Positions 1 through 38,018 of a stretch of 64,000 nt of DNA are shown in pieces. Each line of letters begins with the position of its first letter. The stretch's first letter is position 1. Source of the stretch: Nymphaea colorata (Eukaryota); the NCBI RefSeq assembly GCF_008831285.2, contig NC_045138.2, positions 19,592,001 to 19,656,000 on the forward strand, read 5' to 3'. A program made the translations under genes and the position numbers. The notes beneath the pieces were generated by a model. The model saw only the letters and a list, made by a program, of their open reading frames with translations, did not search any database and was not told the origin of the DNA.

Positions 1-146
1 TACCAAATTTAGTTATGAATGTTTGTGAGATTATCTTTTGTACTTCCAATTTCTGCGAATCCCAATTTTTTTAGACTACTACTAGTGCTGAAATTGACCA
101 CTTTAATTTGTCTACAGACAAAAAAAAAATTGAAATTGGACTCATA

Positions 147-3100
147 CCCATGAGGAGAGAACAGGGTCAATGTCTTTGCAGACAAAATGGAGCCTCCAGC
201 TCTCCGCCCTCCAAAGTGATTCCTCTCTTTCAGTTGAAAAAGGGTAGGCATGCACACCCCATATGTTGATCATATACAGCGCATTTGGATTGGTGACCTT
301 TCCCTGCCCATCCAAAGCTACCAATATGGCTTTCTTGCTAAATCTCCATTCATTGCGTACGTACTTCACAAAGGCAGATCTCGGGTGTGGCGGTGGGTAG
401 GCTGTCAGCCACGGCATTTCAGCTGCCACCTGCAATATCTCCTTCAATTGATTTTCGCCATTAATGAGGTCATTGACCGGCTCCATGATTGGAACCCAAA
501 CTATTTCAAACATGTTCTGTTGGCAGTGGTTACTATGGGTTTGTTGGAGAGCGTTGAGAATAGTCAGGTGCTCCTTCACCGTGATTTGCAAGTCTGAGAA
601 CAGTAAAAGCACAGCCTTCCGGCGCAACACCTCCACATGCACCTGGAAAAAATGGGGCATCAAAGCAGAAATTGTGATGTTAGATTGCTTTCTGTACAAG
701 AGGCACAAAGCAGATTCAATAATTAGAAAGACATCGATCATGCATGAAGCACAGATGAAGAAAGACAGGATGCATGGCATTTAAGTACAAATGACAGAAT
801 CATGGCACTGAATCTATTTAAAGGAAATAATTATTCACTTCATATGTAACAACAGGACCAAATTAAAATTCGAGGTAGTTAGGGAGTTTATACTTCTTTA
901 AGCTAAAGGATTTTTCTAGAGAAGTAAGCAGGTATTTACCAATTAAGGTTATGAAAGTCGTTTTCTCGATAATGTCTTTGCTTTGAAGGTTGTAAGAAAT
1001 GTACTTTCGCTTTGGCGTGCATTGATTTTGTCTAGAATGTCTTTACAAATGATTCACAATGCTAAAGCACAGCACCGAAGACAAAACACCGACCTTCTTG
1101 TCAAGGGAACGCCGGATGAAGGGGTAGTCATCCTTGGAAGGGAAAATTGTCCTCAGAATCTTCATGTTATCAACATGGATTGTTAGGAAGAGTTGCTGAA
1201 GTATTCTGTAGGCTTCTATTGACTTCTTCTCCTCTGCAGAAATCATTCATCATCGGATAAGTGGTAGACATGTTATCCATGGTGGCAAGAATCAGTAAAA
1301 CATGTCACCACTCCTGTAATGTATTACACTTTTCCATACATACCTATGATCTGCAGGCACATCTCCAGTTGCTTTTTTAGGTGACCGTGGATGTTCTTCA
1401 CCTTGTAAGCCAAGCTAGAAATCTCCCAAGCCTCAGATGTTGAAACGAGATGCCTGCATGGTGAGAGATGCTAAAAAAAGGCAACATTCTGCTCTCAAAT
1501 TTACCCTTAATTTTATCTTTCTTCTTTTTCAATTTGGAGATCAAATTGTCAATAAGTTGCTTCAAGTTCTAAAATTAAATATACGAAGAGAAACTGATCA
1601 CAAGTGCTTTCTCTTCTAGGAGTGTGGAAAATATGAAAGGAAATAACATGATGAACTGGTGCAGTATTTAACAGTACAGTAAAATTGTTTGGATATGATA
1701 GATCAAAATGATCAATGATCGTAAAATTATTCAAATTGAAAAAGTAAACGATGAAACAAACGAACTTCAATAAATCATGTTTTGCTTCTTGTGCAGTTGG
1801 TGGCACCACTATGTTTTGGAATATTGGTCGAACCAACTACATATTCATGCTTTCTTAAAATGGTAGTGATCGAAGCCATAAATATTTTCTTCTTTTCCTG
1901 CCTTGTCGACTTAGAAAAATCAGAAGCATGTTGCCTTAGCACATTAGATTAGAGTAATCTACGAACATAGTGATGGTGCTGATGGGGATACACGACTTGC
2001 ATTTATATCCCGGTCTGTCAGCAGGGGCGGAGCCAGAAAATGCCGGCTAAGGGGCGGTAGGTATAAGATTTTTAAAACTTTAAGTGGTACCAATATGTAA
2101 ATGAAAAAATTGCTGGAAAATATCAAGATAAAATAAATTTTTTGGGGGTTTCGAGTGGGCAATTGCCCACATGTAGCCCACACATGCCTCCCCCCTGTCT
2201 GTCAGACTGGTCCTTCAAAAACATATATAGATAGTTACCCGTGGTTCACGCTAATCAGACCAACAACCTGCGCCGACGATGTTACCGCACTTTTGATGAT
2301 CCAATAGACCGCGGTTGGAATACAAGACAGAGCTTCGACCATTGCAGGCACTTCCATGGAGATATAGTTTACCGGCAGCTCACTGAACGCAATTATGCAC
2401 CTTGTAAGCTCCAGCATTTCCTTGATCAAGTTGTCTAAAGCATCAAACTTTGGCTTCAGCGCGTGAACATGTCGTAGTAGTTCGGGCATCCGCTTGAGGA
2501 GTCCTACAGACTTGGCCAGGGGATTGACTGTACAGATCTGGCCAGTGAGCCAGAACTCTCCATAACTCATGGCAAAGGCAGCCAGAATTAGTACGACCTT
2601 TCCCTCCCAAGGATAGACACTCAGTATCGGGCCACTGAGCAGTCCCAACGTTGTCGCGTGCGAGTCGGTGCCTCCCGTGCACTTGCATGTTATCTTCAGA
2701 CATGCAAAAAATCAACAGCGGTATCAAACTACACTGGCAATTTTGGGAGAAATTAAATTATGGCCTGTTATGTTAAGAGATCGAAAGCACCCTGGGTGTT
2801 GAACTGCTGACTTCTTCAATTTAAAGGTCTTAGGTCCAAGCCCTTTTATATTAGAGATCTGCTGAACTGCTGCTGGTTATGTTCTACTGTTTGTACTTCA
2901 AGAGGGCTGCTTTTCTTAGTTCAAATGTTCTTGAAGAAAAGAAGCAAAGAGAAGATTTTAAACTGTGACTCAAACAGCTTTTGCCTACACTTTAAATTGA
3001 TCTCAATCGATGTTTTAAAAATGAAAAAGTCTGTATGTTAAACTATGTGATCGAATTAAAACTTGGGTATGATTTTCAACACTTTAATTCTGCCCTTGAG

Positions 3101-4042
3101 ATTGGGGAAAAAAAAAATGAAATGAACTGTAAATATGCGCACAGGTCGTGGTTTCGTAGAACTATACCTCGCAACTAATCTGCTGGATGACGTAAGACAC
3201 TCCACCCAGAGCATCAAGGTCTATGGAATCATCATGAGCGTTGCTTTCTTCGGTAACGATAGATTGGAAAGTAGTAGCCTGCACATATGGCAACGGCAAA
3301 TGCTTTCTGTGTTATGGTTAAGTGACACAGATCAGCAGTATAAGCAGCAAGCAGCAGCAGAAGAGGTAAATAATGTAGTTCAAATCATTGAACCAAATAC
3401 CATGTCTAATAACTAATAAGCTTGAACATGTGTTATTAGGAAGGAAAGGGTACTTAAAAGGCTGGTTCTTTCAAGCAACTCTCCAGAAATAGATCAGAGA
3501 GTGTTCGATCGAGTGAGAAGTGCTCAGATTTCCATGGAAAGCCGATGTATGAGAGACATGCATGAATGAATAAGAAATTCTGCTGTTAATAGTAAGAGGT
3601 GTCTTTCTAATAGCTGAGATGTCTAGAATTCTACTATGCTATTAGCAGGGGCGGAGCGACGGGGGGGGGCGCCTAGGCCATGGCCTGCACCCTGGTTAAC
3701 GAAAAAAAAAAACTTTTACATTAAAAAAAATATTATTTTTTAATCATTCTATGTATTTTTTAAATTTAAATTCAGTTTAGCCCTACCCGAATCTAGAGGT
3801 TGGACTGCTCCGCCACTGGCTATTAGTACACTACCAATGAAGTTGAGATGTCTTACCAGTACAGTAGAAGAAGCGTGGCGAAAGATCTGTTCGATGACAC
3901 TCATGACAGGCTTGACGTCGAACGCCCGGCCGTTTGGCTTGTGGGTGTCCAGTAGGTTCTTCATGAGGACTGTATCGTCAACAGAAGCTGCAAATGGAGG
4001 CGGGCTACAATTGAACGTCAAAGGCATCTTCAGGGGTTCCAT
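147..4042 (-). CDS. SEOR: Sieve element occlusion (SEO/SEOR) family protein, multi-exon, 3' end runs off the left edge of the window. Coding exons approx. 3857-4042, 3168-3278, 2239-2695, 1345-1454, 1095-1234, 147-642
   Basis: Spliced exons with GT/AG ends translate to SEO-family motifs: DDTVLMKNLLDTHKPNGRAFDVKPV, IQQISCE/ITCKCTGG..HATT, YPWEGKVVLILAAFAMSYGEFWL..NPLAKSV, IPTAVYWII, AWEISSLAYKVKNIHGHLKKQL, VEVLRRKAVLLLFSDL, FEIVWVPI, MPW..WRFSKKAILVALDGQGKVTNPNALYMINIWGVHAYPF. Confidence 0.93.
2022..2197. mobile_element. hAT-type MITE in SEO intron
   Basis: Imperfect TIRs CAGGGGCGGAG.../...CTCCCCCCTG, flanked by the 8-bp direct repeat TCTGTCAG (2014-2021 and 2198-2205). Confidence 0.85.
3646..3818. 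mobile_element. hAT-type MITE in SEO intron
   Basis: TIRs CAGGGGCGGAGC / GCTCCGCCACTG; 8-bp TSD GCTATTAG (3638-3645 and 3819-3826). Confidence 0.88.
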
Positions 4043-4511
4043 TCTCTTGACTGATCACCGGCACGTCTTGATCAATGAGCTCTGAGAAAACACTCGTAAG
4101 GCACAAGATATGTGGTGATGCCTGGTTCAGTGAAGCCATGCTTGGTAAGAAGCTTTTATGACGGGATGAAAAAGGTGAATCAAGAATGCTTATTATCATC
4201 CTCGGTATGGTTATCTGGTCGCATTTTCAAGAGTGCATGCTGATTTCCTCTACGTTCAAAATTTAGGAGAGACTTAACAATATAATGGTGTGACGTATGA
4301 AAAATTAAATAACAAAGAAAAATATATAAATATATGACGTGAACCTATTTACGAGGCATCCAAGCATGCAAAAAGTGAGGTAACGGAGAAATAAGTAACA
4401 TGAGCCAGGACTTTCAGTTAGTAAAGGAAGGGAGGACACCCCCCGCATGCTTTTATTGGAAGCAACAGGGTAATTTAGCGTGTCGATGAAAAGGATGACA
4501 GGTCAGGCAAG

Positions 4512-9608: not shown

Positions 9609-10884
9609 ATCTGATGACTTCATCGTTCACTTCTGTTCCTGTTATAGATCCTTTATCTTTCCATTTAGTGCTACTTCAAAGGCCAGGCCAATGAGTACAA
9701 ATGGCATGATTGATACTATGACAGAGAGAAACGTAACTTTCTCAACGTTCAGAGGATGCGTTCACAAATAACTAAAGCTTGTCATGACAGCACAACATCG
9801 AAGTTTTGTCTGCCCTTGCCCTGAACAACCACCCTACCATGCATTAGAAAGAAAAGCAGATGGAGGAGATCGCACTTCAACCATGGTACCTGTAGATACA
9901 TTTGTTTACGACAAACACATATTGAAACGTAGCCTAAACAGTCACTGCTGATGCATTTTAAAACTCCTGTAACTTGGAGTAAATTTAGATTAGAAACAAT
10001 GACAAACGAAACAATCAAAACCATATCAAGACACAAACTCAGCAAGTTTATCAAAATCAAAATATTGATTATATGAACCCTTGCTCCTAACCAGCTTGGA
10101 TTACTAATGTTTGAGCCCTTGAACTTGTGATTCAAAAATAGCAAAATAGAGCTTCTGTGCCTGAATAAGCTTCTTTGCCTCGCCCTGCAAAGGAACAAAA
10201 GCTAGTAAGTCGAACAAAATAAAAATCTAGAAAAGACAATATTACACACATGACAAGCAAAAAAACTACATAAAGTTAGATCCCCTAAACATTACAATTG
10301 AGTTGCAAAGCTCTAGAGGGAGAAACCTTTAAGAGAGTTAGCAGAGAATACACATTACGTTAGAATGTAAAGGATTAATTGCATGCTTTTTCACTCCAAT
10401 CTGCTATGCAATCACTGCAGGGAAAATGGGCAAATAAAAGTGAATACTAGAGCTAAATGACGCTATGTTGAATGCTCACGTGACTTCACTTTTTTTACAA
10501 TTAAAACTTTTAAGTCCACAGGAAGGCTACACTTGCTTGCAACAGTATAGGATGGAGCTCCATCAAACAAGATAAAGATTATTCCTTTTAAATATCTGTC
10601 AACTTCATCACAATGAGAAGGATATGCAAAACAGCACAATAATTCAGATGAGAATGTTGTCTGTGTAGTGTGTATATAACAAACATCGGAAGAACTTCAA
10701 TGCTTATTTGATATATCCATATGGTGCATCTTTGAAACCAATGTCGATTTAAATGCTGGATCAGGTGTGATCCAAATTTGTTAAATAGATCAGGGCAACA
10801 TATGCATCACAAATGGATTCTCCAGTCAAGGGCACTAATTTTTCTCAAGCCTTAAACAGCTCATCTTCTAATTACTGTTAGGGA

Positions 10885-12715
10885 AACTTGACTTGCTCGA
10901 ACGAATTGATGAAATCAGAAACCATAGCTTGCTTACCTCAGATTAGCATAACTCTAGCAGATTTCTCGCGGTTATGCATATAGCGTCGTAGACAACGTCC
11001 TTAAATATCACATTCATGGTGTTGTCATACCTATTTCAGCATTTTAAAGCTGTTTTTGATTAATAGGCTTACGACCATAAACTTTGCATAAAAAAACATA
11101 GATTAAAACTTAACATAAAATCAGATGTAAGCCATCAACGTACAAACATGAACAACGATCGGACAACATGCATGAAACAGGGGACTAAGAAAGAAAAAGA
11201 AATAGATGGCTAAACCAGTGATTTACGAGAATATGGAAGGAAGACATTAACATGGAACAATGATGGACGCAAATGCGGTCGAATCACAAAGGGGATTAGG
11301 TTGCGTTTACCTGTGGGGATGCGTTTCTTTCGGCATAGCAGGAGATCAAAGGCTTCGCAAACGATTCACCAAGGGCTTGCTTGTATTGATTGGATTGCGT
11401 TAATCGGACCACCAAGCAACGATTCAACAAAGTAAGATTCCATCTGAAGGTGCTGTGATCACTTGGAGTCAATACGAAGGGGAGAAAAATGCCGCTCAGC
11501 AGAGGAGAATAAAAAGAGTGAAAATTTTGTTTTTGGAGGACAAAAAAATGCCTTCACATGAAATACAAAATGTTCCCTACATACTAAAGTGAAGGAGGGA
11601 AGACGTATTAACAGCACGCTAAACAAGGAACACACAGGGTGGAGAATTCTTTCCAAGCTGGTTGTAGATTTGGGCCCGCAATACAGGACTAGGATATTTG
11701 GCTCCCAAGTTAATTACCTTTCAATAAAACAAGCAAGGGTAGACATATGATTGAATGTACAACTGAGACTATCTTCCTTGCTTCACATTTTTAATCCATG
11801 ATATGTCTTTCACATACCCACCACCTGTCGTCACCACATGGACTTACCTTGTACTCTCTTTCTCTCTCTCTTTCGATATATATATATATATATAAGCCAG
11901 TAAAACCCCAGTGGACCTTGGAAAGCAGGTGGGTAGAGATAGCACATGACGAGTATGTAGTTGATGGAATAAAGTAGTAGCCCAGCAATCATATCATCAT
12001 CAACATAAGTCACACCATTAATAGAAATGAAACGAATAGCCTTCCTCCGAAAGTTCTGGGACGCCTATTGCTGAAAGAATTTAGCGTTATCATCCTTCCT
12101 TCAGCCATTGGACCCAATATTATTGCTTCCAGTAGCATTCATCAGGAGCACACCAAATATCAAAGATGAGTAAATGTGAGATGAGCCTGCTGTAAATGCA
12201 ACTAAAGAAGGTGATCATCATCACCATGGTGATGTAAACCAAAAATGTGTTGACACTTATATTTCAGAAAATTGAACAGTGTTTCTTGTTCATGCGCGAC
12301 ATGCAAAACAATTTCCACCGACTTTCCTATTTTCAACGACATAGAGCAGCAAGTTGATCGTCTCTATATATAAATACACATGAAACTCTATTCACCCATA
12401 TTTCCTGCCCTTGCCATCAGCTCATAAGCGTCTCTTCATAAGGATGCCCAACGCTAACAACAATCACTCCAAAGTTTCTGATTAAAAAGAAGCACTACAA
12501 TCAAATGTCAAGGTATTTCATATGTTAGGAACAGTAAGAAGTAAATTGGAAGAATTCAGGAAAAGAGGAACCAAAGAGGCAAAGACAGAATTCTCTGAAG
12601 CAGCAATCGTTAGTCAACCTACTCTGAATGTCAAGTTCCCATACAGTTAATGACTTCTCACATGATTCATTAACAGACACTCATGGTTGTGACAAGGGGC
12701 ATCTATGCAGCCACC
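10885..12715. repeat. Low-copy duplicated segment, homologous in the same orientation to 36268-37288; about 0.8 kb (11312-12120) is absent from the second copy
   Basis: Shared strings such as GATGAAATCAGAAACCATAG, TTAGGTTGCGTTTACCT, ATTGCTTCCAG, CTATGCAGCCACCA. Confidence 0.9.
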
Positions 12716-12755
12716 AGCGAGCGATAGAGAGCGAGAGAGAGAGAAAGAGCGTTGA

Positions 12756-12793
<38 letters not shown>

Positions 12794-13604
12794 TTTTTTA
12801 GAGTAAGGACAAATAAAAATTTGATTTTCAATGTCAAATTAATTGTTCCTGAAAGAGATATGGAAAACATAAGGTTGAAAAATAGGATAAATTCTTCTAC
12901 TATTTGCAATGGATGGGAAAACAGTAGCTTATATATTACTAAGTAAACAAAGGCATAAAATGGAAAAAAAGCAGTATTGGAAACATGCACATAAGAAACA
13001 CAACTTTATTAGAAGATCATTCAGGAAGCGGTACCATGAAGAACTAAATAGAAGCTCTTAGTACAAGCTAGCTATCAGCACTTGAGATCTTTTCATATGG
13101 GTTTTCCTAAAGCAAAGAAGTGAAAGTGAAAGAGTGTGGACTACAGCTCCTAGTGATGGCAGCAGATTTTACTCTTGACAAAAACCATAAACCAACAGAA
13201 GAACAGAGGGACATGGAATGGACCCACAAAATACCCAAACACTAAGCATAATAACTACAGAAGCATTCCACCAACATGAACTTGGACACCCAAAGACCAT
13301 AGAACACGAAGAACTCATGCCTCAGACACAGTTTTTACTACGGAATAGTAGTTTTCAGACCTCTAGGACAATTATATCACCACTGTTTATCCAGCATAAT
13401 CTACATTCCTTTGTTTATATCATCTGTCTTTTCCAGTTCAGAAATTTTACCGTCACCAAATACGTTGCACATCGCCACTGCTAGCTGGCAAGTCACTGCT
13501 AGAGATAGTCAAGGAACTACTGATGAATTCATCTGGCTGAGTTCCTGCATGACCAGATATAGCCTTTTTTGTTCAGGGTCAGGCTCCCTGTGCTTCTTCA
13601 AATG

Positions 13605-16600
13605 TTACTCTTCAGGATTATCTAACACACTACCACTTGAGAGCTCAAGGGCAGCATGACTAGTGGAAAACTTACATGGCTGAGTGCTCTGATCAATTGC
13701 TTGATTGTCAAATGAAGTCTCTCTGCTCAAGTTCACCTCTTTTGGAACTCCTTTTAGAGCAGAATTCTCTTCAGTGGCTTCACCACCCACTTCTTCATTG
13801 TGAAAAGTGAATGACTGGAACCATTCTTGCCATTTGAGCAATCTTTCTTCTAGCACAGTATCACTACTTCTGTTATATAACACAGAGTTGATATCTTGGA
13901 AACTTGTTCTGAGCAAAAATCTTCTTGGTAGCAAATAGCTACTGAATTTTCTCATCACCCTTTTTGCAGCAAGGACATCCTTTTGACATGCTGGATACTT
14001 CTTTTCAGCTTTAGAAAATGCACCAGATGCATAGATGGAGAACACTTCGTACCTTTCCTTATTGCTAGAGTTGGCTACCTGCCATTCTTGAAGATCTTTT
14101 CTGCTAACAAACTTGAGTTTCCCATTCCAGTGTGCATCAGAGGAATTGGCCTCAACAATCAGGAAATCATCTCCGCTTGGTAGCTGCAATGGTGGCAAAG
14201 AGTCACACTCTGCTTTAAGTTCTTTCAACCAACTTTCCTTTTCCCTGTCCCAAATAAATGCCTCCCCTTTCTTCAGAAGCTTTGCTATTGGCTTCCGCCT
14301 TCTGGCAAAGTCCTTGAGGAATGCTTCTGCATAGGATAAACATCCCAAAAGCATATGCAACTGCCTTTTGTCTTTAAGTTGGTCTGGAAATTCTTGGATT
14401 TTTCTCAAAATGTGAGGTAGCAAAAGAATTTGACTACCTTTGATATGAAAACCAAGAAAGTCAATTTCATTTTTCAGGATCTCCATTTGTGGTGCCGAAA
14501 GAACTATCCCATTTTCACAACAAGCTTTTGCAAACTGCTTCAGATGGCAAATATGCTCGTCTTTAGTTTTGCTGAAAACAAAAATCTCATCAAGGAAGCA
14601 TCTGACAAAGTCATGATATGGACCAAAGATTGAATCCACGTGCTTTTGTAATACTGATGGTGCATTACAATAACCTATAGGCATAACATTCCACTCATAG
14701 GTGCCAATAAGAGTGCTAAAAGCAAAATATTTCTTACAATCTTCGGCAAGTTTCAACTGAGAAAATCCTGATTGTACCTCAAATTTACTGAACCATTGGC
14801 AATTCCCAATCAAGGTGAATAATGAATCCTTGCGGGGTAAAGGATACCAATCTCTTATAACATTCTTATTTAGGTGCTTGTAGTCGATGACCAACTGCTT
14901 TCCTTTCTGGTGACTATTGATGTAGAAGGCTGAAGAGACAAGGCCTCCATGTGTTTTGGATTTCCTCACTACTCCAGCTTTTGCCCACTCTTCAATATCA
15001 TGTTTGCATTTCTCCTCATCTTCCTCATCCATAGGTATGCATTTGCTTTTCATTACCTGTGAATGATTTGGCTTAAGCTTCACCTCAATTTCAAATGCAT
15101 CTTTCTTGGAAAGTGAATATGCAGATTGGGAACACAAATATTTCTCAAAGATTTCTTTGGCTGAAAATTCATTAATATCTTCAAAATCCAATTCTTTGTC
15201 ATGTTGATGAGAGGGAGCTAGCTCAAAAATCATTTCACATGCCTTCTGTAGATAGAAAGGGTTTCCATTTGGCTTACATTCATGAAGATAAATCTCATGA
15301 CCTGCATCTGGTTTGAAATTCCCTCTGAAGTTCTGTTCTTGCAATTTATTGTTTTTGGCATATGCATGTGCAGCTTCCTCATTGTCACCTGCAAAAGACT
15401 TGACTGTATGAAATTTTAACACATGAGTTCGCGGAATCTTGTGCTCAACCCCATTAATTGTCCAATAGACATTAGCCTTATCATGAGAATACCTCTCAAG
15501 ATGCTTGTCAAGTATATCCTGTCCAATAAGGATATCATAACCTTGCTTGTCATAAGCATAGAAATGCAAAGTTAAGTCTTCCCCGTCAACCTTTGCACGG
15601 ACAAATATCTCTTGGTCAAGAAAGATTGTATGACCTGATACAGTACACACTGCTAATTTGGGATTTAAAGATTTCCACATACATTCTGGAAAAATGCAGG
15701 ACTTTGCAACACTAATTGTTGCCCCAGTGTCAATGAAACAATCAATTTCTTGGAAGATCTCTTTGGACTTCTTGCTAACTGCAAATTCAAGCTTGACAGC
15801 TACAATTTTTGGGCGGTAAACTATTGAAGAGTGTTCTAGTTGTTCCTTGGTTTCAATCTTATTTTCTATATATCCAATATCATACGCATCTCGACCAATT
15901 CCAGTTTTGTGTGAGAAGGTATTTTCATGAACTTCAAGCAATCCAACATAATCAAATGCTGTTACTATTCCAGTAATAGTATCACCATCAATGAAAGCAT
16001 CGTTCGGTAGAAGGTCAGCCTTTTTGTTTGTAGGATTCTGATCATCAATCTTTGCCCGGAAGTATGGGTTCCTTGCATAATCCTGATACTGCCTTCTCTG
16101 AATGGTCCGCACCCTCTTGGCCATTGTTTGGAAATCAACTTCTTTGATGGCCAACTTTAGTTCCCCGATAGTCTTTCCAATGCTCTCGACCTGAAATCCT
16201 GGATTCGTGACCCCATCATACTCTGCAACTTGCCGGTTAACCTCATCAATCTGATACTGCAGATGCTTTGTGATATCCTTAACGTCTTGCAGAGGATTTC
16301 CTCCAGAGGTCAACTTCTCAATCTCTTGCATAATTGAGGTAATGTTTTCTTTATCCGCAACTTTTTCCCTAAGCCCTTGCACAGATTGATAAATGGTTTT
16401 AAGGTCCATCTCTATGCCAAGGTGCCGTGGTGGAAGGTTTGTATATGCTTCATCCCAGTATTTTCTTTGATGAATTGCGTATAGTGCTCTAGAATACAAG
16501 TTCAGCTTGGCATTTAACCGTCGCTCAGAAAGAATCTTTTTATATTCTTCCCAGTCATCTAAGTTTCCAAAAAGATGGAAAGCTCGATATGCCATATCAT

Positions 16601-17447
16601 GTATAATCTTTTCTTCTGTTCCAATAGCAATATCGGCACCAGTACCAGGCCAAACCATGTACCTATCACGGTGACAGTGAGGGGGGACTGTAACATCATT
16701 ACCAGGCCGATTATAAGGAACTGTGTCACTGTAATTGTCTACTCTAAGAGTTTTCTGCTCCCTAGCGGGGAATTTTGGGTTCGTTGGTCGAGCCATGAAG
16801 ATTTGTTCATCTTCACTCTGTATTTCTGACTCTGTTTCAGAGCAGTAGTACTCTGATTCTTCATCAGAGTCCTTGGCTTCCAACATGTCAAGGTATTCAA
16901 TGGGACCATTTGTCTCTACCCCAGAAAGCCTTTGCTCAAGCAAACTAGCGTAGTCCTTGTAATTCTCATTATTGTCCTTCTCTTGAGGTTTTCTCATCTC
17001 ATCTCCTTTATCTGCAATAGCCTTTGACAGCATTCGACGTGATTCATCTATGAAGGAGAAGAGATTTTTCATTACCGACTCCATCAAATGGTAGACATCC
17101 TTGCAGCTGACGTCTACCTCTTTGGAAAGTCCCTCTGGATTGTCCCACTTGACGTTCCAATGGTTCACGCGACTACCTAAACCCATCACAGTGTTAAACT
17201 CCGACACCACTTCCTTCTTTCGCTTTTCACTCTCGGATTCCAACCTCTCCATCCTAGAAGTCAGATCATTGAAACAACTGGTGACAATGGATTCGAGGTT
17301 TTTGATCGAGGTGTTGCTATCAGTGACATTGTTCTGAAGTTGTTGGAACCATTTCTCTACAGATGCATCACAGCTTTTCTCGTCATGATCATGGCTGTAA
17401 ATGTATTTCTTGAGAAGATAGGGAACGTTTTCCGATTGACATGCCAT
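13605..17447 (-). CDS. 1280-aa intronless ORF: N-terminal family domain plus acidic tract, an unassigned middle region, then Caulimoviridae-like aspartic protease, reverse transcriptase (catalytically degenerate) and RNase H (catalytically degenerate). Gene g1
   Basis: DCFIDTGATISVAKSCIFPECMW and YDILIGQD (caulimoviral protease); DWYPLPRKDSLFTLIGNCQWFSKFEVQSGF, YEWNVMPIGYCNAPSVLQ, FLDEIFVFS, IDFLG (RT); LIVEANSSDAHW, YASGAFSKAEKKY, RFLLRTS, RLLKWQEWF (RNase H). The domain order AP-RT-RH with no integrase matches pararetroviruses. Confidence 0.92.
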   Translation of the reverse strand: MACQSENVPYLLKKYIYSHDHDEKSCDASVEKWFQQLQNNVTDSNTSIKNLESIVTSCFNDLTSRMERLESESEKRKKEVVSEFNTVMGLGSRVNHWNVKWDNPEGLSKEVDVSCKDVYHLMESVMKNLFSFIDESRRMLSKAIADKGDEMRKPQEKDNNENYKDYASLLEQRLSGVETNGPIEYLDMLEAKDSDEESEYYCSETESEIQSEDEQIFMARPTNPKFPAREQKTLRVDNYSDTVPYNRPGNDVTVPPHCHRDRYMVWPGTGADIAIGTEEKIIHDMAYRAFHLFGNLDDWEEYKKILSERRLNAKLNLYSRALYAIHQRKYWDEAYTNLPPRHLGIEMDLKTIYQSVQGLREKVADKENITSIMQEIEKLTSGGNPLQDVKDITKHLQYQIDEVNRQVAEYDGVTNPGFQVESIGKTIGELKLAIKEVDFQTMAKRVRTIQRRQYQDYARNPYFRAKIDDQNPTNKKADLLPNDAFIDGDTITGIVTAFDYVGLLEVHENTFSHKTGIGRDAYDIGYIENKIETKEQLEHSSIVYRPKIVAVKLEFAVSKKSKEIFQEIDCFIDTGATISVAKSCIFPECMWKSLNPKLAVCTVSGHTIFLDQEIFVRAKVDGEDLTLHFYAYDKQGYDILIGQDILDKHLERYSHDKANVYWTINGVEHKIPRTHVLKFHTVKSFAGDNEEAAHAYAKNNKLQEQNFRGNFKPDAGHEIYLHECKPNGNPFYLQKACEMIFELAPSHQHDKELDFEDINEFSAKEIFEKYLCSQSAYSLSKKDAFEIEVKLKPNHSQVMKSKCIPMDEEDEEKCKHDIEEWAKAGVVRKSKTHGGLVSSAFYINSHQKGKQLVIDYKHLNKNVIRDWYPLPRKDSLFTLIGNCQWFSKFEVQSGFSQLKLAEDCKKYFAFSTLIGTYEWNVMPIGYCNAPSVLQKHVDSIFGPYHDFVRCFLDEIFVFSKTKDEHICHLKQFAKACCENGIVLSAPQMEILKNEIDFLGFHIKGSQILLLPHILRKIQEFPDQLKDKRQLHMLLGCLSYAEAFLKDFARRRKPIAKLLKKGEAFIWDREKESWLKELKAECDSLPPLQLPSGDDFLIVEANSSDAHWNGKLKFVSRKDLQEWQVANSSNKERYEVFSIYASGAFSKAEKKYPACQKDVLAAKRVMRKFSSYLLPRRFLLRTSFQDINSVLYNRSSDTVLEERLLKWQEWFQSFTFHNEEVGGEATEENSALKGVPKEVNLSRETSFDNQAIDQSTQPCKFSTSHAALELSSGSVLDNPEE

Positions 17448-18882
17448 GTTCTTGCAAAGTAAGAACCGTCGGACAAACGGTATGCGGTTACAAGAGGAAA
17501 TGTGACTTGAAGCCTTTGTTCTGATGCAAATGATACAGAGATTGTTCTCTGCGATCGCAGAACTCAGAAGCTCATAATGAAATGCAGCAAAACTCGTGGT
17601 TCACAAGGAAGTAAACTTTACCACACCGACGTCATTCTCGTGGTTAGCTTATTCTGTACTGCAACCATGGTCGATCAAACGAGTCCCTGCGTGCTTCAAC
17701 CATTAAGTACACTGAGTTGTGGAAATTTAACAAGTGAGCATGAAAGATGAGAAGCACAACCGGAGTGGAGATAAGACCATGGTAACCACCCAAACAAACA
17801 AATGAATGAGTGAAAAGAAATCCATGAAGCAAACAAGCTAGCAAGATACAAACCCAACTGAACACAAGCATACACTATGGCTCTCTTTAAGCTAAAATTT
17901 GGTGCTGGGTTTAGACCCATCTAAGCATGATCCATTGATGTGTTCAAATTGAATCGAGTGAGTGTTATTTTTCTGAATTTGGTCAGCTGTTACACTCAGA
18001 AGCCGACATCAAAAGAACTCCGGTACTTTAGAGAAAAGGATGCACTCAAGCCAATAAAATGGAAAATTCATTGCCAACATTTGGTGACAAGGTGTCACCA
18101 TAATACAAAACACAAGCAAACCATACAAAACGCAAAAAAAAAAAAGAACAAAACAGAAAGAAAAATAAACAAAATAAACCAGAGAGAGAGAGAGAGAGAT
18201 TGTAATTCAATTTTATTAGGGATTAACAAAGATTATATGGTGACTGTGACTGGAATAAGTTCAATCCGGTGCGTCAACAAAACTTAGTTACTTTGGCAAT
18301 TCCTTGAAAGCCCCGTAATTAAGCATATCTCTTTGTGTTAATATTCAGGCAATAGTTCTTATATGGTGACTGTGACTGAAAAAGCTTACAGCAAACATGG
18401 CCCTTTGGCGTACAAATCCTATTATATTCATGCTTCCAACAAAATTTATTTTTTTCCATTTCATGGTTCTCGAAATGTAAAGCTCGCATTTGTGCGGTAC
18501 TTAGTTTTGTAAAATATAATACATTTATTCTCAATAGAAAAAATCAACAAGAGTCTATTGCACCCAAGTGTACGATAATACTATACATATAGAGGCCACC
18601 TATTTGGTCAGGATTCCTGAGTTCTTTTCCACGAATTCAACTATGATGTGGTAAAACTGAATCTCTAAATCTATAAGCCAGGATTTTTAAAAAAAAAATC
18701 AATGAAAAATTTGAATTGCAGATCAAATTTTGTTGTAAGCATTCAAAAGGCTGATATTATGAAGTTTCTTGGTACATATAAAATCCAATGTGCACATCAG
18801 ATTTCTAGTTCTTTTTTTTTTTATTACGATACTTTTTCAGTCTGATATTTGAAAAATTTGGTGCAAGAGATTACCACACACC

Positions 18883-18920
<38 letters not shown>

Positions 18921-19799
18921 CAGAGAAGAGAGCAGAACAAAACCAAATAGATCACAAATATACAAGCCCAAAACACAACGGGAAAGGCACTACAGCAAAT
19001 AATGATAACTAATGATAACAAAAACCTAATAGAAGACCAAGAAACCAGCAATCAAATTCCTCCATCAAAAAATCCCCAAGCAACACAGATTCACCAAGGT
19101 AACGATTAGAAGACCAAAGTGACCAGCATCTAAAGCCCCCACTAAACATTTAGGAGCAACGGTTGACCGAAGTTGCTAGCCAAGCAAGTCGGGATCGCCA
19201 AACCCAACATGAGAGTAAGTCGAATTATTATAATGGTATTAGAGTGGCATGTGAATGTGTTTTCATAAGGAGGTGGATTATAACGAGTACAAATTTTGTG
19301 TGCCATTATGTGTGTGCCGCCTATGTATGCAGCAAAAGAAGGGAGGTGTTTTTGCAATTTTTAAAAAATGTCATTTCACTTTTTTTATTTTCATTTTTAT
19401 CTTGCCAAAAATTTGTCTTTTTTTTTAACTCATGAAATTTTGGGCACCTATAACACCCATTTTAACGTTTTAAGAAGTTTAGTCCCGTTTGTGGGAGAGA
19501 GAGAGAGAGAGAGAGCGGTTCTAGTCTTTCTAGACACCAAACATCACATTCTCTTCCCTTATCATATAGCATATAGAGTTGTGTTATGAAATGCTCCATC
19601 TTGCACGAAACAACATCAATATACATATCTGTAAGTCATGAGATGAAGCTAATCTACGCGCAATGGCGATTGACAACAAGGGGAGAGGCCAAGGTAGGCA
19701 TGTTTAATTTGGCTTTACAAGTCAAGCTTGCAGGCACATGACATTAACTCGAATAGGCTATTAATCTTAAATAACAAAATAAAACTTAAGCATGGAAGA

Positions 19800-20072
19800 A
19801 CTCACAGGAGAGTACTGATTGGAGATGGAAGAACAACGATTGAAGATTTGACAGAAGATTGGACGAGCAGATGACCAGTGAACAAAAGCCTCTGCCTATT
19901 TATAGACGAAAAGAGCGTGAACTCGATTGCTAGGTGCTTGCATGTGCATTGATGCGGAAGTATAAATGGGCATTTATTAGGAGAGGCAACTGCCCGTCGA
20001 AGTTCCAGAGACGGAAGACTCCCAAGTCCCCGGGGCCATCCCCCATTGACGCCATCAACATGACATCATCCG
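19800..20072 (-). promoter_or_regulatory. Promoter module and non-coding first exon for g1 (copy P1)
   Basis: GTGAGT donor at 19800-19805; GAGATGGAAGAA exon motif; TATA CTATAAA at 19899-19905; TGTGCATTGATG..AAGTATAAATGGGCATT; GAAGACTCCCAAGTCC (20014-20029); TGACGCCATCAACATGACATCATC (20047-20070). All are collinear with P0. Confidence 0.75.
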
Positions 20073-20927: not shown

Positions 20928-21329
20928 ATGAGTTGCCAGTGTGATAAAGACGTGGTGCCATCGATAAACACTTACAGTAAATTTGTGATTACCACTCTGG
21001 TGATGCCAGAAGGCCATGGAAATCTGTACGAATGCCTCATGAAAGAGTTTGCTGATCTTTCCTCTCTTCTGAGAAAATATGTATCCGATCGTCATACTGC
21101 TGAGAAGGCCAATGATGATCACTCAGCGGAGAAATGTATCAAGAAACTTCAAGACGAAGCTGCCAAGACTCTCGCAGAGATCAGCAATTTCAAGAGTCAG
21201 CTCACGATCCTCAGTGAGCAGCTCAAAATTTACAGGGAGGAGCAGGACAACCTCTTCAAGACAATATTAGCAGAGAAAGAAGACCTGACTGCAGAGCTTC
21301 TGGAGAAAGCGAAAGGACATGAAAATTGA
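20928..21329 (+). CDS. 133-aa short member of the uncharacterised family (gene g2)
   Basis: ATG at 20928 (MSCQCDKD); INTYSKFVITTLVMPEGHGNLYECL matches the g4 N-terminus, LLRKYVS..EKCIKKLQ matches g1/g3, ILSEQLKIYREEQDNLFKTI matches the g3/g4 C-terminal region. Confidence 0.75.
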   Translation: MSCQCDKDVVPSINTYSKFVITTLVMPEGHGNLYECLMKEFADLSSLLRKYVSDRHTAEKANDDHSAEKCIKKLQDEAAKTLAEISNFKSQLTILSEQLKIYREEQDNLFKTILAEKEDLTAELLEKAKGHEN

Positions 21330-24113
21330 TGCATCTTAAAGATCGTTATCCTGAACGGCTCCGTTACTATCTTGATTTGTGCAAATGTGTTAAAGATTGT
21401 GGAGTACTCCGTACGTAGCTCGTGTCCTCTGGTAGTAGTTCGAGTCCTTCGTGTATCTTTATTGTCGTGCTTTAGCTGGTTGGAGATGTAACTGGCCAGC
21501 TTTTTGTTCTTGTCTCGCTTTGCCCACTGCTTTAGGCAAGAGCCTAAATAATGGTTCTTTAATTTCATTTCGGGTTGCACGTCTCTTGCTTGGAGTTGAA
21601 CAGGATATGATACTAGCAAAAATTAAGCAATGGCTGATTGGCCACCCATGTGATAGTAAAGAAGACTAGAGTTAAGAGAAAGTGAGAGAAGCACAATGAT
21701 ACAAAAACCCGAATTTACGTGGTTCATGAGACCCTGAGGATTTGCATCCTAGAGATGTTTTATACAAAAAATATTTCACTAGCTTGGGAAGAACATTACA
21801 ACAACAAATGTAGGAAATGTTTATATATATGAAAACTCAATGCAATGATAAAACGAAATAAAGAACAAGGAAACATGATACGTTTACAATCTAGATAAAG
21901 CAAGGTGAGCAGTACTGAACATTTTGACCGATGATTGAGGATGAGAGGAAGCAAATGGCGCAGGTTGCCATTATAGTCTTAAAGAAGAAGAAGCTGATTG
22001 AGAACGTTTGAATTGATTTTTTTCCTTCAAATTCCTTCCAAGAGGGGTTGCACAACGTAATATATTATGTTGATATAATCACAATCAATTTCAATGTATT
22101 ATGTTTTTCATATAACATAATATCCCTTGCAATATGAATGGCTGCTAATTGATTATCAAACCGCATAGGGAGACTGTTACAAGTAGAGATAAATCCCAAA
22201 TCAGTCACCAAGAATTTGGCACGAACTAACTTACATGTTGCGGTTGATCGGTTAACAATATTAATTTGATTATTGATAATGCGATTCGGAGTTTTAGAGT
22301 TCCAAAGGCTCGAGATATACAGGCCAGAAAATCCTTATGCTTCCGTTTGGTAAATTTTAGCAAGAAGATTCCTGCTTTAGGTATTACCCATGAAAGTCAT
22401 CGTTTTTCTTTTTGTTATTTGTCTCCTCAAAAAGTTGTAAAACCTTTGATGATTTTGTCACTGAAATGAAATTTGGTACTGCAAGGTAAGTGTGAGGAAG
22501 AGGGGGAGGCCGTGTGCGGGGATTGGGGGAGAGTATCGCAAAGAGGTTGAAGCCCTCTCCCTTTCCCTTGCCCCCCCCCCCACAATCTAAGGCTGCTTCA
22601 GGATTTGGGTGAAGAGTGGTATACCCGTAACTCTTAACTCTTACGTCCAATGTTTGCAATGCAAAAAAATAGCACTCATAAAAATCAAATTGACTATTAA
22701 ACTTTCACGGACCTACCAAACCGACCAACTATTCATTACAGTCTCTTAGGGCATATATACACATCTTTGGATAGCTACCAACTTATCTGGTTGCATCTCC
22801 ATGTTTTTGTTCACCCAATTAAAGGGTGTTCTCCATGCAGGTATACCCATCTTTGGTAAATGACTCTCAATATAATGGTAACTATAATAATTATTGGTAC
22901 AAAAATAAATTCTTGTAGGAATTGAGGAGGTTTAGTAGTCCTTATAGAAAAGTTTACACGGTATGACAATTCTCACTCAATTGGCTTTCATTTGAGGAGG
23001 AAGCTGTCCATGATTTTGTTCTCTGGGTGTCATAATAATCTTATTATGTATATCTACTCGCCTATACTGGGGAAAAAACTCTCTGGTTCAGTTGTCTGAA
23101 TTTGTGCAGAGCTTGTCTGGTTTTTCCTGGTTTTCCTATGTAATTATTTCATCTGTTCATTTTTTTTGCAATAAAGTAAGGGAGTCCTCCTCCCATCAAC
23201 TTTCCATTGGAACTAAATTATGCCTCTTCTGAATGGATGAATATCCCGAAAATTGCATTGAAGTACTTATGTGTTGTCACACCCTTGTATGCAACTCATA
23301 CATGCAAACGTGAGGTACTTGTTTACAAGTCATTCATCGGCAGTTTGAAACAATTTTTGAAAGCCTTCATCCTATATTAGCCCGCTACAAATTTGTTGCT
23401 TTATTAGAAAAAGTATACTAAAACAGTGACTTCGAAACATAACCAAATATGGGGTCTTAAACAGCAAGATTTTAAAATCTTAAAAAACTTGTCAAATGTT
23501 TGACAATTTTTTTAGAAAAGAAAAAAATCATAAAAGTTAGGTAAAAGTAAAATAAATGAAAAAATAACAAAAATAAAAAAAAATAACTTCATAAATTGAT
23601 AAAATGATGCTTTACTAATTAAGAAACGAAGATATATAATTTAACTCAACTTTTAAATTTTGAAGCAAAATAATTTAAAAATAATGAAAAAAAACATGAC
23701 AAAAGCACGAACATTCAACCAGTTTTACTAATTAATATTTTCTCACTCTCCTGAAACTCCCCACATGTCCATGCCATAGGCTTTACTTCCCCCCAATGGA
23801 GAACCCTAAACAGGAATTTTTTGGATTTTGGGTGAGTGCGGAGACCCATTACTTGTGACTTTCGTCTCTCCAAACTATAAGGTCTGCTTTCGACACTTTG
23901 GATGCCACCTCTATCCACCGGCTTTATTGTCAATTAATATTGTGGCAATAATTTACTATTTCATCATCTATAAGCCCATACAATATAGAAAATGAGTTTT
24001 TGGGCCACAACATTTTAAATTATGAGTCTTCGAAGTCAAGGGACTGCATTTTGTCGCTGTTAAGGCCACAGAAGGACCATCAATCTTCCTGCCGACCAAT
24101 TAATAATTTTATG

Positions 24114-24116
<3 letters not shown>

Positions 24117-24187
<71 letters not shown>
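24117..24187. repeat. (TA)n microsatellite
   Basis: Directly visible. Confidence 0.97.
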
Positions 24188-24190
<3 letters not shown>

Positions 24191-25649
24191 GTTCATATAT
24201 TTTATCATTTGATAGACAGGTTGTAATAAAAACAAACTTATCCTTCAAGAGATTTATTTTAACGGGGCCCATTTTTCTACTTCTAAAATCTAATCCGAGA
24301 CTTTTGAATAAGGCCAGCGTTTGGTTGGGCCAGCCTTGACCACAATTAAAATTATACCTTCAAACCCACCTGATCATCCAGCAGGCTGCAAGGCACCATA
24401 TAGATAAATGAATAAACAAATAAACAAATAAAATGAGTTGGTGATGAATAACCAAGGCAGCTTGAGAAAGTAGGTCGCCTCATTAATGTATGCAATAAAC
24501 CAAGAAGACCAATATTTTTATGTGACAATTTGTAAGTGATCATTCCAACCCATTGCTGGATCGGGATTTCTTATCCTTTCTGGATCTCATCATGTATGTG
24601 CATGTGTACATATTTGTTAATGTACTTCATTTGACATTCATGCCTTAAAAGTTTAGTACATATAACACAATCTGCTCAAGCCACCTTAGACCCATCCTCA
24701 TTCTCATGAATTGTGCACATTTATTGAAGATGTACTTTCTAACCATTATAGATATAGTAGATGGCTAATAAGTCAATTCCACATAGACCATTATTGTCGC
24801 CGATATATCGCCATATAACATCAACATTAATGTGTTATAATGTTCAACCCCCAACGCTCCAATCAAGGGATCATCTTCTATGGATTCACGCTGCCCTAGT
24901 AAAATTATATCTGCTTGGTTCGTGGTTTTCCAATTATATATGTTCCTGCCGCCCCACGCTGATCCGTTGAATCGCCTCTTCGTTCTGCCAAAGGGCAGCC
25001 ATAACTTATGTATTCAAAAGAAAGTCCACGTTGAGAAGACTTATTGAAATGTATACAGTAAGTTAACCAGTTTTATTAATCGTTCCCTACTCACTCACCT
25101 GGTGCAATGCGCATCATGAACAGCGAAGGAAGTAAAATCTCGGTAAATTAAATCCCGCAGATCACTCTTATTTTGATCACACGATGGTCATGTGCTCCAA
25201 CAGAGAAAGTTAAACTGATATGCAGGCACCTTGGGGCACGGAACTACAGATCATGTACGTGAAGAAATTAATGGCGTAGATAAATGGAGAGTCGTTGTCA
25301 GTTTTGTCTTGACATGACATAATTGTTTCGTTTGGGAGATAGCAGGTGGTAGATGTTAGAATCTACAGCAGATGCATATGGATTCCGTGGATTCATGTGG
25401 TAAACCTTGAGTTGCATGTATCTGATAACATAATTTTCATCACAGAGCCCTGGGATCAGATATCTGAGGGCTTTAAGCATGCTCTTAACGATTAGTAAAT
25501 ACTCAATAATTTTGTTACTTGAGCATGCATGCACATAATTATAACTTTGAATAGAGGAGATTCAATTAGTTATCGTTAACAAAATGTATGGAGGCTTCCA
25601 TTGGGCATGAACTTAGACAAGCAACTGTTCTCCCCTTCCAAGACAGCAA

Positions 25650-27420
25650 TCTATCACTTAACCATGTTTTTGTGTTGAAGCCTAGTAATCAAAAACTTCA
25701 GTTGTAAACTCTTTCTGGTCCTGAGAAAGACCTTGGGGAAGCCTTTTAATTGCTCCTGACCTCCCAATGAGTTCATCCTACGACAAGCAAGTTGATTTAG
25801 TTCTAACATTTTGCAATTTGAGAGAACTACAACTGCATTTTTTCTGAAGTACCTTATATACAAGTTCAAATCCTCCATGCCCGAGCTGATCCTCCTTTGA
25901 AAAGTTATGGTATACGTAGCTTCTTGTGTGTTCTTTAGGCTGAACTGAGGCAACTTGGAGTTACTCTCATAGTCTATTGAAGTCATCACAAGGTTGGATC
26001 TTTATAAATCTTTTGTTACTGAAAACAAGAGAAATTGAAAGAATAGTTTGTAACAAAAAAAAACATGCACAATAGTGTTGCAATTAGAGGAAATAGAGTT
26101 GTTGTTACTGCTAGCAACACCAAAGTACCTGGAGAAGCAAAGGTTATAGTAAATTTCAGTAAAAACTAAATGTTGGAAACATCTGCCATGTGGAAAGTAT
26201 GTCAAGAACTTGTTACTTGTGCTACAAATAGCAGCTTTAGCCCATTCTGTCTTGTTTGATCCAAAAGATGTAAAGGTATATCAAGATGTAGATATAAAGT
26301 AACTTTCATATTCAAAAGCTCAGTCAATATACATTTTGTGTATAGAGACAACATATATTGATAAGAGACTAACCCATGTTGGATGTAACAAACTTAGCCA
26401 TATGTCTCATCAAGAACACTTGATTAGTCTCTCAAAGCTCGAGGTGTGAACAAATAAAGTTTGTTCATGATGTCAATATGAAAAGAAGTACAAAATACTA
26501 TCTAAAAATTCCAAGTGCCAAGCTAAAGCACTATTGAAACATGTGCATCTAGATGTGTGTGGAAAAGTACTTGACCCAGCGAGAGGTATATGGTATTTTT
26601 ATCACATTTATTGTTGTTTTTTCAAGATTACTTGACTTTATTTTGTAAAGGGAAGCTCTCAAGTACTTGGAAGGTTTAAGGAGTTCCATCAAAATGTAAA
26701 GAAGGAACTTAGTTTCAAAGTTTTGTAGGTATGAACTGTCAATGTTAGAGAATATACATATGGCACGTTCATAGAAACATAAAACAACAATGGCATTCAA
26801 TGACAATTTATATGTGCCAATATGCCTCAGCAAAATGGAGTCATATAGCAATGTTTTTTTGCAATATCATGGTTTGACATGATTTTGCGGCATGACCTCC
26901 TTTCCTTTGAGATATGTTCAAGGAGACCTTGATCATAATACTTTACGGAAGAGAATCATCCTATAAAATGATCTGCCATTATAAGTATTGATCATGTTGA
27001 AGATTTGCCAAATGGAAATCAACTACTGGGTACACATTTGGTCTTCAAAATGGAGCAATCTCATGGTGTCATGAAAAGCAACCAACAATTCACTCCCTGC
27101 AACAGAGCATCGCATAGAACAGCAGTTGAGCTGCTAAAGAATGCATCTGGCTAATACAACTATGGGAAGTTATCATACAAGAAGTTTATTTTCTGGTGGC
27201 ACTTTATTACGACAATGAAAGTGCCACTAGACTTGCAAACAATCACAATCTTTGAGCAGACCACATAGAGGTCACAAAAAGCTTGCCAGGCATTCTCTAA
27301 GTTCAAGATGCTACTAGGAGTTATGAGTAGATAGTCAGCAATGAGAGGAAGATTGTAAAAAGTCCTCACCAACACTCACATAACGTTTAGGAGGACTCAA
27401 GGCCTCTGCATTGAGTAAAC
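25650..27420 (+). mobile_element. Heavily degraded, internally deleted Ty1/copia LTR-retrotransposon remnant (boundaries approximate)
   Basis: Frameshifted integrase relics LLKHVHLDVCG (about 26531), YFITFIVVFSR (about 26593) and PQQNGV (about 26825); an RNase H-end-like TKSL..FSKFKMLLGV followed by a purine tract GAGAGGAAGA and TTGT at about 27343-27356. Confidence 0.7.
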
Positions 27421-29828: not shown

Positions 29829-30286
29829 TTATTTTCTCGGATGAAGGCAACCTTGCAGGGAGAAGTCGGAAAAATGCATCAAAAGAAAGAAACCCCTTTA
29901 TTCTAACAAGATCAGGAGCTGGATTTTAGTTTTACTGTGATTTCAAAAAGCAGATATCCGAATTTCAGTAGTCTTTATTCTCGAAAGAAAAGGCAGAATC
30001 GTTAGTCAAATGTTACCATACCAGCAAAAGCAGCTGGTACTCAAGTTGGTCTTTTCTGCAAGCACCTGCAAGTCGATCAAACACTCCCTGCATGCATATT
30101 TCGATTAGGTAGTCGTTTCCTAAAAATTAATTTTAAATCAATATAAGGCAATACAAAAAACAGTCGATTTTGGGCGTCTGCTCATTCTATACAAACATAC
30201 ATGCCGTCAAGAGGCCAAAAACAACTTGGGTTGCAACTTAAGTTAGCTCTAGCAACCAGGGAAAGCATGCGCAATATGAAGAAACA

Positions 30287-37288: not shown

Positions 37289-37602
37289 CTCCAGTAATTT
37301 TTACTAAACCGATAAGATCATAAGTTAAAAATGGTCGATCGGATGCATACAAATGCCTGTCGACCATGCATGCAAAGAACACACATACACACACTATCTA
37401 CATATATATAAACAAATAAACTCAAGAAGTCTAATTGTATGAAGAATTCGCTCTTGATGCGGAAAAGGGTGATCACATCACTTAAAAAACCATCCTGAAC
37501 TGCTCGAAACAAATAAGAATATAAAGAGCCCAGATCTTGGCCATTTGTTTATTTACCATTTTAATTTCTTGATCACGCAGGCCTTACTTTTGTTGGCATT
37601 TG

Positions 37603-38018
37603 TGGACGCAGTATTGATCACACTGAACATAGACAATGGCAAGATCAAGACGGACCTCGTAAATGCCTCTAACCTGAACATCAAGAGGCAAGTAGACGTC
37701 GTGTCCGACCAACTCAGAGTCTAGAAGTAGGAACAGGTCAATCGGCTACAGGCCATTGCCCCATAAAGAGATCAGATCAGGAAGCTTCAAGAGAAATCCG
37801 AATCTGAGATTGAAGGTCCGAACAACCGAATCCGTCATCTTGAAGAAGGGCTGATCGGTGTGGAGACAGAGGAGCCCGGTGAATTCCTCGACATGTTGGA
37901 AACTAAGGATTCTGATGGAGAATCAGAGTACCAGTACTTTGAAACAGAGTCAGAACTGCAAAGCGAAGATGATGATCAAGAGAAACTGCTTCAATCTTCT
38001 AACCAACGTGGAACCTAG
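37603..38018 (+). pseudogene. 5'-truncated pseudogene copy of the g4 C-terminus; the duplication extends through the 3' flank to about 38865 (equivalent to 34992-36260)
   Basis: Close copy of 34992-35407 with TAC>TAG (37722-37724), CAG>TAG (37728-37730) and small indels. Confidence 0.9.

Follow-up and report, generated by a model that had tools for sequence, protein, structure and literature searches.

Background

The polymerase polyproteins (Pol) of Caulimoviridae, such as the product of CaMV ORF V (PDB 8R0S) and that of Rudbeckia flower distortion virus (P0036), carry a protease, a reverse transcriptase (RT) and an RNase H in this order and have no integrase. The catalytic residues given for CaMV RT are Asp140, 203, 204, 351, Glu396, Asp421 and 468 (PMC11363490). 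The protein described here, P0001, shares this domain order, the lack of an integrase and the predicted fold. However, the carboxylates kept in the viral proteins are mostly altered in P0001, which is moreover fused to 545 unrelated residues, has neither a primer-binding site nor further viral genes nearby and is encoded by a gene with a host-type intron.

In mammals, RTL1/PEG11 is a long open frame derived from a reverse-transcribing element, in which the protease is kept, the RT and RNase H sites are mutated and coiled coils are present, as in P0001 (PMC2799525). According to the same paper, RTL1/PEG11 differs in coming from a Ty3/gypsy retrotransposon, with gag and integrase remnants, and in having a demonstrated protein, full length and apparently not self-cleaving. 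The monotreme genes RTOM1-3 are likewise RT-derived, lack the catalytic aspartates, lie in a tandem cluster and are described as being under purifying selection; unlike P0001 they are of retroviral origin, consist of RT only and have been followed by dN/dS over 55 million years (PMC9514029). By analogy, P0001 would work like RTL1 and RTOM; it is a member of neither.

In plants, Arabidopsis AtMP and eggplant VR1 resemble P0001 in being transcribed caulimovirid sequences joined to a host gene, but AtMP is a movement protein and VR1 disrupts its host gene (PMC10377300, PMC8346255). In the available part of a 2023 review these two cases, a movement-protein fusion and a promoter, are the only pointers to caulimovirid domestication, and the evidence is called scant (PMC10377300). 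We found no description of a domesticated caulimovirid pol in plants in a literature search whose coverage excluded most subscription journals. The nearest entry is OTU 21 of a 2026 paper, comprising N.colorata_copy_64 and N.thermarum_copy_63, one copy per genome, and placed as sister to Clade A (PMC13308828). There it is read as a virus lineage, and the accessible portion of that paper makes no mention of domestication, co-option, exaptation, orthologs or purifying selection (PMC13308828).

Organisation of the gene

The window is the whole stretch of DNA that was analysed, 64,000 nucleotides of Nymphaea colorata contig NC_045138.2 (positions 19,592,001 to 19,656,000). The gene is laid out as follows.

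13605..17447, minus strand: P0001 open reading frame, 1,280 codons, ATG at 17447 and stop at 13605
16806..17447, minus strand: aa 1-214, coiled-coil part and acidic tract, common to four paralogues in the window
15813..16805, minus strand: aa 215-545, helical middle part, constrained, without Pfam, viral or atlas match
15408..15812, minus strand: caulimovirid aspartic protease (Pfam Peptidase_A3, E 2.5e-7), DTG (15723-15731) and ILIGQD kept
14184..15107, minus strand: reverse transcriptase fold, 2 of 3 catalytic Asp and dNTP-pocket residues altered; alignment-based model matches CaMV RT
13752..14183, minus strand: RNase H fold, 4 of 4 carboxylates altered

The original prediction described a Pol frame without stops; the frame is indeed open over all 1,280 codons, of which the coordinates given there covered the second half only, and the ATG lies in a strong context (AACATGG). 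Pfam matches (Peptidase_A3, RVT_1 and RNase H) are confined to the second half, in which the A3-type protease precedes RT and no integrase follows RNase H. A model of aa 530-1220 (pLDDT 78) superposes on 8R0S with an rmsd of 2.9, although, being alignment-based, it reflects the alignment more than P0001 itself. For aa 1-702, prediction from the single sequence gave a pLDDT of 34, too low to use. An atlas search with aa 1-540 and with the 387-aa paralogue returned nothing usable, and none of 6,528 candidates was a relative of aa 1-560 in a weak search that also missed the paralogues in the window. An in-frame ATG, Met 219 (16791-16793), lies directly 3' of the acidic tract, so that translation could yield a protein lacking the coiled-coil part, even where the allele is damaged close to its start. 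The coding strand of the locus is A-rich. The pol part (13608-15812) is strongly depleted in CpG (observed/expected 0-0.3; 0.07-0.83 in viral RTs), and CHG is not depleted in the frame (1.06).

Caulimovirid origin and surroundings

The closest solved relative of the RT is CaMV RT (E 7e-78, against 2e-36 for Ty3), and identity to Caulimoviridae Pol is 32-37%. An RT phylogeny had been proposed with the original prediction, and the trees place P0001 within Caulimoviridae with support 100/100. A Ty3/gypsy origin was considered and rejected, since both the E values and the trees favour Caulimoviridae. P0001 has the longest end branch (1.04 and 1.23), with a root-to-tip length inside the viral range. 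In a tree of 36 rows chosen from 126 it falls weakly inside a Clade A-like group; in a tree of 24 of the 78 viral contigs plus 13 proteins it is sister to that group (support 85/49), and this sister placement is not rejected (p-AU 0.48). The 78 viral contigs were recovered with an alignment query rather than a single protein; the P0001 protein alone, used in word-based scans of contigs from viruses and metagenomes, gave no match.

The sister-to-Clade-A place in one tree and the occurrence in two Nymphaea genomes are shared with OTU 21, and any open RT frame of at least 200 aa would be caught by its pipeline as described (PMC9719215). Against this, the pipeline filter requires a DD motif where P0001 has DE, and the other tree puts P0001 weakly inside Clade A. 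Matched by description, P0001 is probably OTU 21, and if so it would be a single-copy locus.

No movement protein, capsid zinc knuckle or transactivator was found among the 142 ORFs of the window, tRNA-Met primer-binding-site motifs occur 5 times at 2 mismatches where 4.3 are expected by chance, and Rfam had no match in window positions 9000-40000. The neighbours are ordinary host genes, and some repeats are present.

142-4054, minus strand: sieve element occlusion gene
47602-48198 and 56425-56655: DUF1997 gene (exons), and a weak match resembling transketolase
10882-12716 and 36266-37288: pair of dispersed repeats in the same orientation, 78-82% alike
32752-33085: three partial copies of a short tandem repeat (about 97-129 bases)

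The two dispersed repeats were rejected as shared gene flanks, having the same orientation while the genes differ in orientation. A run from a related species, X18, has separate contigs over 11956-12660, inside the repeat region.

Catalytic and contact residues

As the original prediction had stated, the protease DTG is intact (aa 573-575, 15723-15731) while the RT and RNase H motifs are substituted. Motif A reads FSKFE (aa 886-890; the column is D in 76/76 viral rows), YxDD reads FLDE (aa 951-954, 14586-14597; second-Asp column D in 77/77), the arginine of KxRMV is Q851 (R in 76/76), ETDAS of RNase H reads EANSS (N1101; D in 78/78), ExLA reads DVLA (D1157; E in 76/77) and RTD reads RTS (S1182; D in 76/76), counted over those of the 78 caulimovirid contigs that have a residue at the column. 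Further changes, which that prediction missed, affect the fourth RNase H carboxylate (S or K depending on the alignment; D in 74/76), Y951 (Y in 77/77), K987 (K in 77/77) and F924 (F in 75/76). The altered dNTP-pocket positions are R851, F924, Y951 and K987. CaMV RT numbering converts to that of P0001 with an offset of 750, valid up to Asp351. In all, 6/7 catalytic carboxylates are altered, at columns 97-100% invariant in the 78 contigs, and D953, the first Asp of YxDD, is the only one retained (1/7).

This loss exceeds that at other conserved columns (6/7 against 19/56, Fisher p 0.013), the more so when the four dNTP-pocket residues are included (10/11 altered against 15/52, p 0.0002); an earlier alignment of 44 rows gave 5/6 carboxylates against 13/48 other columns. 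By contrast with the catalytic sites, both motifs of active retropepsins are present in the protease: DTG and hydrophobic-hydrophobic-Gly-x-Asp/Asn (ILIGQD). Of the nucleic-acid contacts described for CaMV RT (PMC11363490), ten show conservation of at least 90% across the viral contigs, and 7/10 are identical in P0001. The RT-RNase H segment has a net charge of +8, below 75/75 viral segments (+9 to +21), and this speaks against a strong affinity for nucleic acids.

Judged by its RT and RNase H carboxylates, the locus is not a replication-competent endogenous caulimovirid, and by analogy with mutants of other RTs both enzymes are predicted to have no catalytic activity. Polymerisation by Ty1 was stopped when Glu replaced the second Asp of YxDD, and likewise when either of the remaining aspartates was altered (PMC2148107). 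An RT with weak or altered polymerase activity might still be imagined, as the two altered RT positions remain acidic (E, E), the first YxDD Asp is retained, the fold is predicted intact (a prediction driven by the alignment), and Ty1 tolerates Asn at the second Asp while Ty3 is reportedly flexible (PMC2148107). Yet P0001 has precisely the Glu that inactivates Ty1, together with the changed pocket residues, and we regard this as very improbable.

Promoter, leader intron and transcript

Upstream of the frame, a promoter and a spliced leader were found, and downstream a 3' untranslated region.

20047..20068, plus strand: paired TGACGCCA / TGACATCA sites; a second pair at 30544-30566, upstream of the paralogue at 29828
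19897..19905, minus strand: TATA box, common to the paralogue at 29828
19806..19885, minus strand: first leader exon, 5' end approximate
17687..19805, minus strand: 5' leader GT-AG intron of 2,119 bases, skipped by an X18 contig, donor and acceptor read
17448..17686, minus strand: second leader exon, carrying short upstream ORFs of 16, 5 and 3 codons
12914..13604, minus strand: 3' untranslated region, to the reach of X18 contig 15, AATAAA at 13005-13010

Contig 15 of X18 runs unbroken over 12914-17686, including the whole ORF, and continues with letters that map to 19808-19828. The leader intron is therefore removed, as in a processed mRNA, and the contig is RNA-derived because of this splicing, the RNA label of the run being only a guess; none of the listed runs that contain the stretch is recorded as RNA. 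Contigs of X20 end at the same leader-intron acceptor. Expression is low, with 12 raw reads in 11.6 million in run X21; raw reads in X22 (0), X24 (0) and X23 (2, partial) are uninformative on expression. A strong donor-like site, CAT|GTAAGT, is present near the ORF end (13667-13674) and is unspliced in X18; the gene model of P0002, the Nymphaea thermarum relative, uses it to reach an exon at 12184-12104.

The paired TGACGCCA / TGACATCA pattern has 2 matches, against 0 in 100 shuffles, the pattern having been derived from the same two sites. We take these sites to resemble TGA-factor or as-1-like sites, with wider spacing. They are retained upstream of two paralogues at a dS of about 2.

Probable fusion with a local coiled-coil family

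Two points went unnoticed in the original prediction: the gene joins a member of a local coiled-coil family to the viral part, and its best conserved part is the protease. Four paralogues of aa 1-214 lie within 25 kb, each with a single coding exon.

20928..21329, plus strand: short paralogue, 133 aa, divergent from the P0001 gene
28761..29828, minus strand: paralogue, 355 aa, with the same promoter and leader-intron layout as P0001
34244..35407, plus strand: paralogue, 387 aa, ending just past the acidic tract, where P0001 continues
37602..38018, plus strand: broken partial copy of the 387-aa paralogue, a recent tandem duplicate (dS 0.2)

The paralogue at 29828 has the upstream element, TATA, donor and acceptor in common with P0001 (0/500 shuffles each). 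Of nine paralogue pairs, the three long ones have dN/dS 0.14-0.35 at dS 1.2-2.3, three are saturated, and three short ones with the broken copy have 0.39-0.52. The cluster (20928-38018), for which no relatives were found outside the window, consists of old duplications under purifying selection. GC3 in aa 1-136 of P0001 is 0.55, like the paralogues, and falls from 0.50 (aa 1-214) to 0.36 beyond (p 0.0002). This drop, together with the 387-aa paralogue ending at the acidic tract, suggests that an older family member was fused with a captured segment.

A different origin would have the whole frame and the coiled-coil family descend together from a single ancient transcription unit of a virus, which was captured with its own promoter and leader and in part duplicated afterwards. 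All copies indeed have a single coding exon and no relative elsewhere, and the coding strand is A-rich. The short upstream ORFs and paired TGACG sites would also fit, which we take to resemble caulimovirid leaders and promoters. However, aa 1-545 and the coiled-coil family had no match above reversed-sequence scores in 2,263 ORFs of the 78 viral contigs, and the GC3 drop is as expected when two sources join. We consider such an origin rather unlikely; it concerns where the gene came from and does not conflict with domestication. Badnavirus ORF1 and caulimovirus ORF II/III were also rejected as identities of the family, the weak matches being equalled by reversed controls (HH probability <5%).

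Relatives and selection

The stretch encoding P0001 was found in 20/24 listed runs, which represent 10 organisms and 11 studies; three of these runs may be the source of the window itself. The closest protein, and the sole close one, is P0002 of Nymphaea thermarum (93%); among 1.84 billion representatives the best matches reach only 24-42%, and annotated proteins include no relative outside Nymphaea. The P0002 gene model skips aa 827-1088 and 1151-1193, either because repeats were masked or because the sequence is broken there. The introns that it places inside RT and RNase H have no support from X18, which reads straight through. One pol copy is present in the window, and no other over the pol part among the X11 and X12 pieces listed.

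Four contig runs (X11, X12, X18 and X20) were compared, the frame being judged from gap counts among the rows listed. The locus flanks are syntenic, being covered in both DNA runs. Over the whole ORF, X18 has only an 18-base and a 21-base deletion, with all 56 gap letters placed, and the 21-base deletion matches a 7-residue gap in P0002. X12 is gap-free over aa 215-1280, and X20 over aa 59-703, with 1 inserted letter unplaced; X11 has no deletion in the ORF bins and 5 inserted letters unplaced. One base within aa 8-82 is missing from one X12 contig, which has about 60% of its neighbour's depth and is more diverged (3.6% against 1.9%). This points to a disrupted allele or homeologue, or to an error in the contig. 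ORF-bearing contigs are less diverged than flanks in X11 (p 0.0001) and X12 (p 0.04), not significantly in X18 (p 0.10).

The argument that neutral decay hitting so many catalytic residues would also have brought stops is borne out. Under a neutral model the alteration of 17-30% of conserved columns needs 0.09-0.17 substitutions per site, at which RT-RNase H should have gained 5.4-10.1 stops and the whole frame 14-27, where 0 are seen. For RT-RNase H alone the probability of zero stops is 5e-3 to 4e-5. In the comparison with P0002, for which the neutral rate (3.5%) was borrowed from contig flanks and not from P0002, there are 10 changes in aa 1-214 (16 expected), 9 in aa 215-545 (24 expected), 1 in the protease (10 expected) and 4 in the linker (11 expected). 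RNase H, in which 89 residues could be compared, has 5 changes (6.6 expected) and is not below neutral, and the RT core falls outside the comparison since P0002 omits it. Constraint is thus clear on aa 215-826, that is, on the middle part, protease and linker. Crude selection estimates for the whole frame are 0.10-0.51. None of the relatives is more than about 2-4% diverged from the window, and the history tested in this way is therefore short.

These data bear on whether the locus is simply an inert single-copy fragment of an endogenous pararetrovirus, read through from an adjacent promoter. Nymphaea genomes carry more than 100 caulimovirid RT fragments each (PMC13308828), the read count is low, one X12 contig is frameshifted, and the annotated relatives stop at Nymphaea. 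It is nevertheless improbable, given the chance of zero stops even in RT-RNase H alone, the single protease change where 10 are expected, the fact that 0 of at least 6 X12 gap events fall in the ORF part (p 0.002), and the lack nearby of a movement protein, zinc knuckle, transactivator or primer-binding site. The locus is real, not an artefact, and goes beyond an ordinary insert. Domestication as such, proposed from the first, is likely, supported by a frame open despite catalytic loss, a host-type promoter and spliced leader, presence in ten organisms, syntenic flanks and the constraint on aa 215-826.

The accompanying proposal, that RT-RNase H is retained for its fold, stands in part. The catalytic loss was selective in the past, but RNase H now changes about as expected by chance, and in X20 divergence reaches 4.4% in the RT-RNase H contig, which includes about 500 bases of 3' UTR, but 2.8% in the front half (p 0.008). 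The gene may thus be domesticated with only the coiled-coil part, the middle part and the protease mattering now and RT-RNase H a relaxed passenger, kept open since an early stop shortens the tail or triggers nonsense-mediated decay, or since its release is recent. The neutral RNase H, the faster RT half, the low net charge, the omission of RT from the P0002 model and the alteration of 19/56 non-catalytic conserved columns would all agree with this. Pure drift, however, would not alter catalytic columns far more than structural ones; moreover, 7/10 conserved contact residues are retained, and a constraint against stops only would permit large in-frame deletions, of which there are none in RT-RNase H of X12 or X18. 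A relaxed passenger is therefore a minority reading in our view, though one to be taken seriously.

Possible function

The reading that we prefer, with roughly even confidence, is a domesticated gene whose protease works and whose RT-RNase H is dead but likely kept as a binding module. A member of the coiled-coil family runs in frame into the caulimovirid protease, RT and RNase H, and the protein would presumably be made. The protease, as the most constrained part, is likely a working enzyme; it would dimerise and may cut the polyprotein itself, or a host or viral target. The dead RT-RNase H may bind RNA/DNA hybrids or partner proteins, and the past pattern of loss would fit a period of selection on the fold without catalysis.

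The likeliest role, put forward tentatively and by analogy, may be interference with the replication of pararetroviruses or retrotransposons. CaMV RT requires a second RT molecule for RNase H cuts (PMC11363490), so that a dead, still-binding copy could block that step. This need, together with the 121-135 caulimovirid RT fragments of Nymphaea genomes (PMC13308828), makes a decoy plausible. The boldest form of the idea is speculative: P0001 could be the first domesticated pararetrovirus polymerase of plants, a fusion under a host promoter with a live protease and a dead RT-RNase H that, as a protein, heritably block caulimovirid replication, and could have been mistaken for a basal Clade A lineage (OTU 21).

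Endogenous caulimovirids are present in most vascular plants, and P0001 offers a concrete, testable case of domestication of their polymerase gene. It would be a plant counterpart of mammalian RTL1 and RTOM, drawn from a different virus family. If P0001 is OTU 21, one of the sequences used to date the root of Clade A belongs to a host gene that evolves free of catalytic constraint, and the date obtained is affected by this. Should the dead module interfere with replication, the gene would represent a natural resistance, conferred by a protein, against a virus family with crop pathogens among its members.
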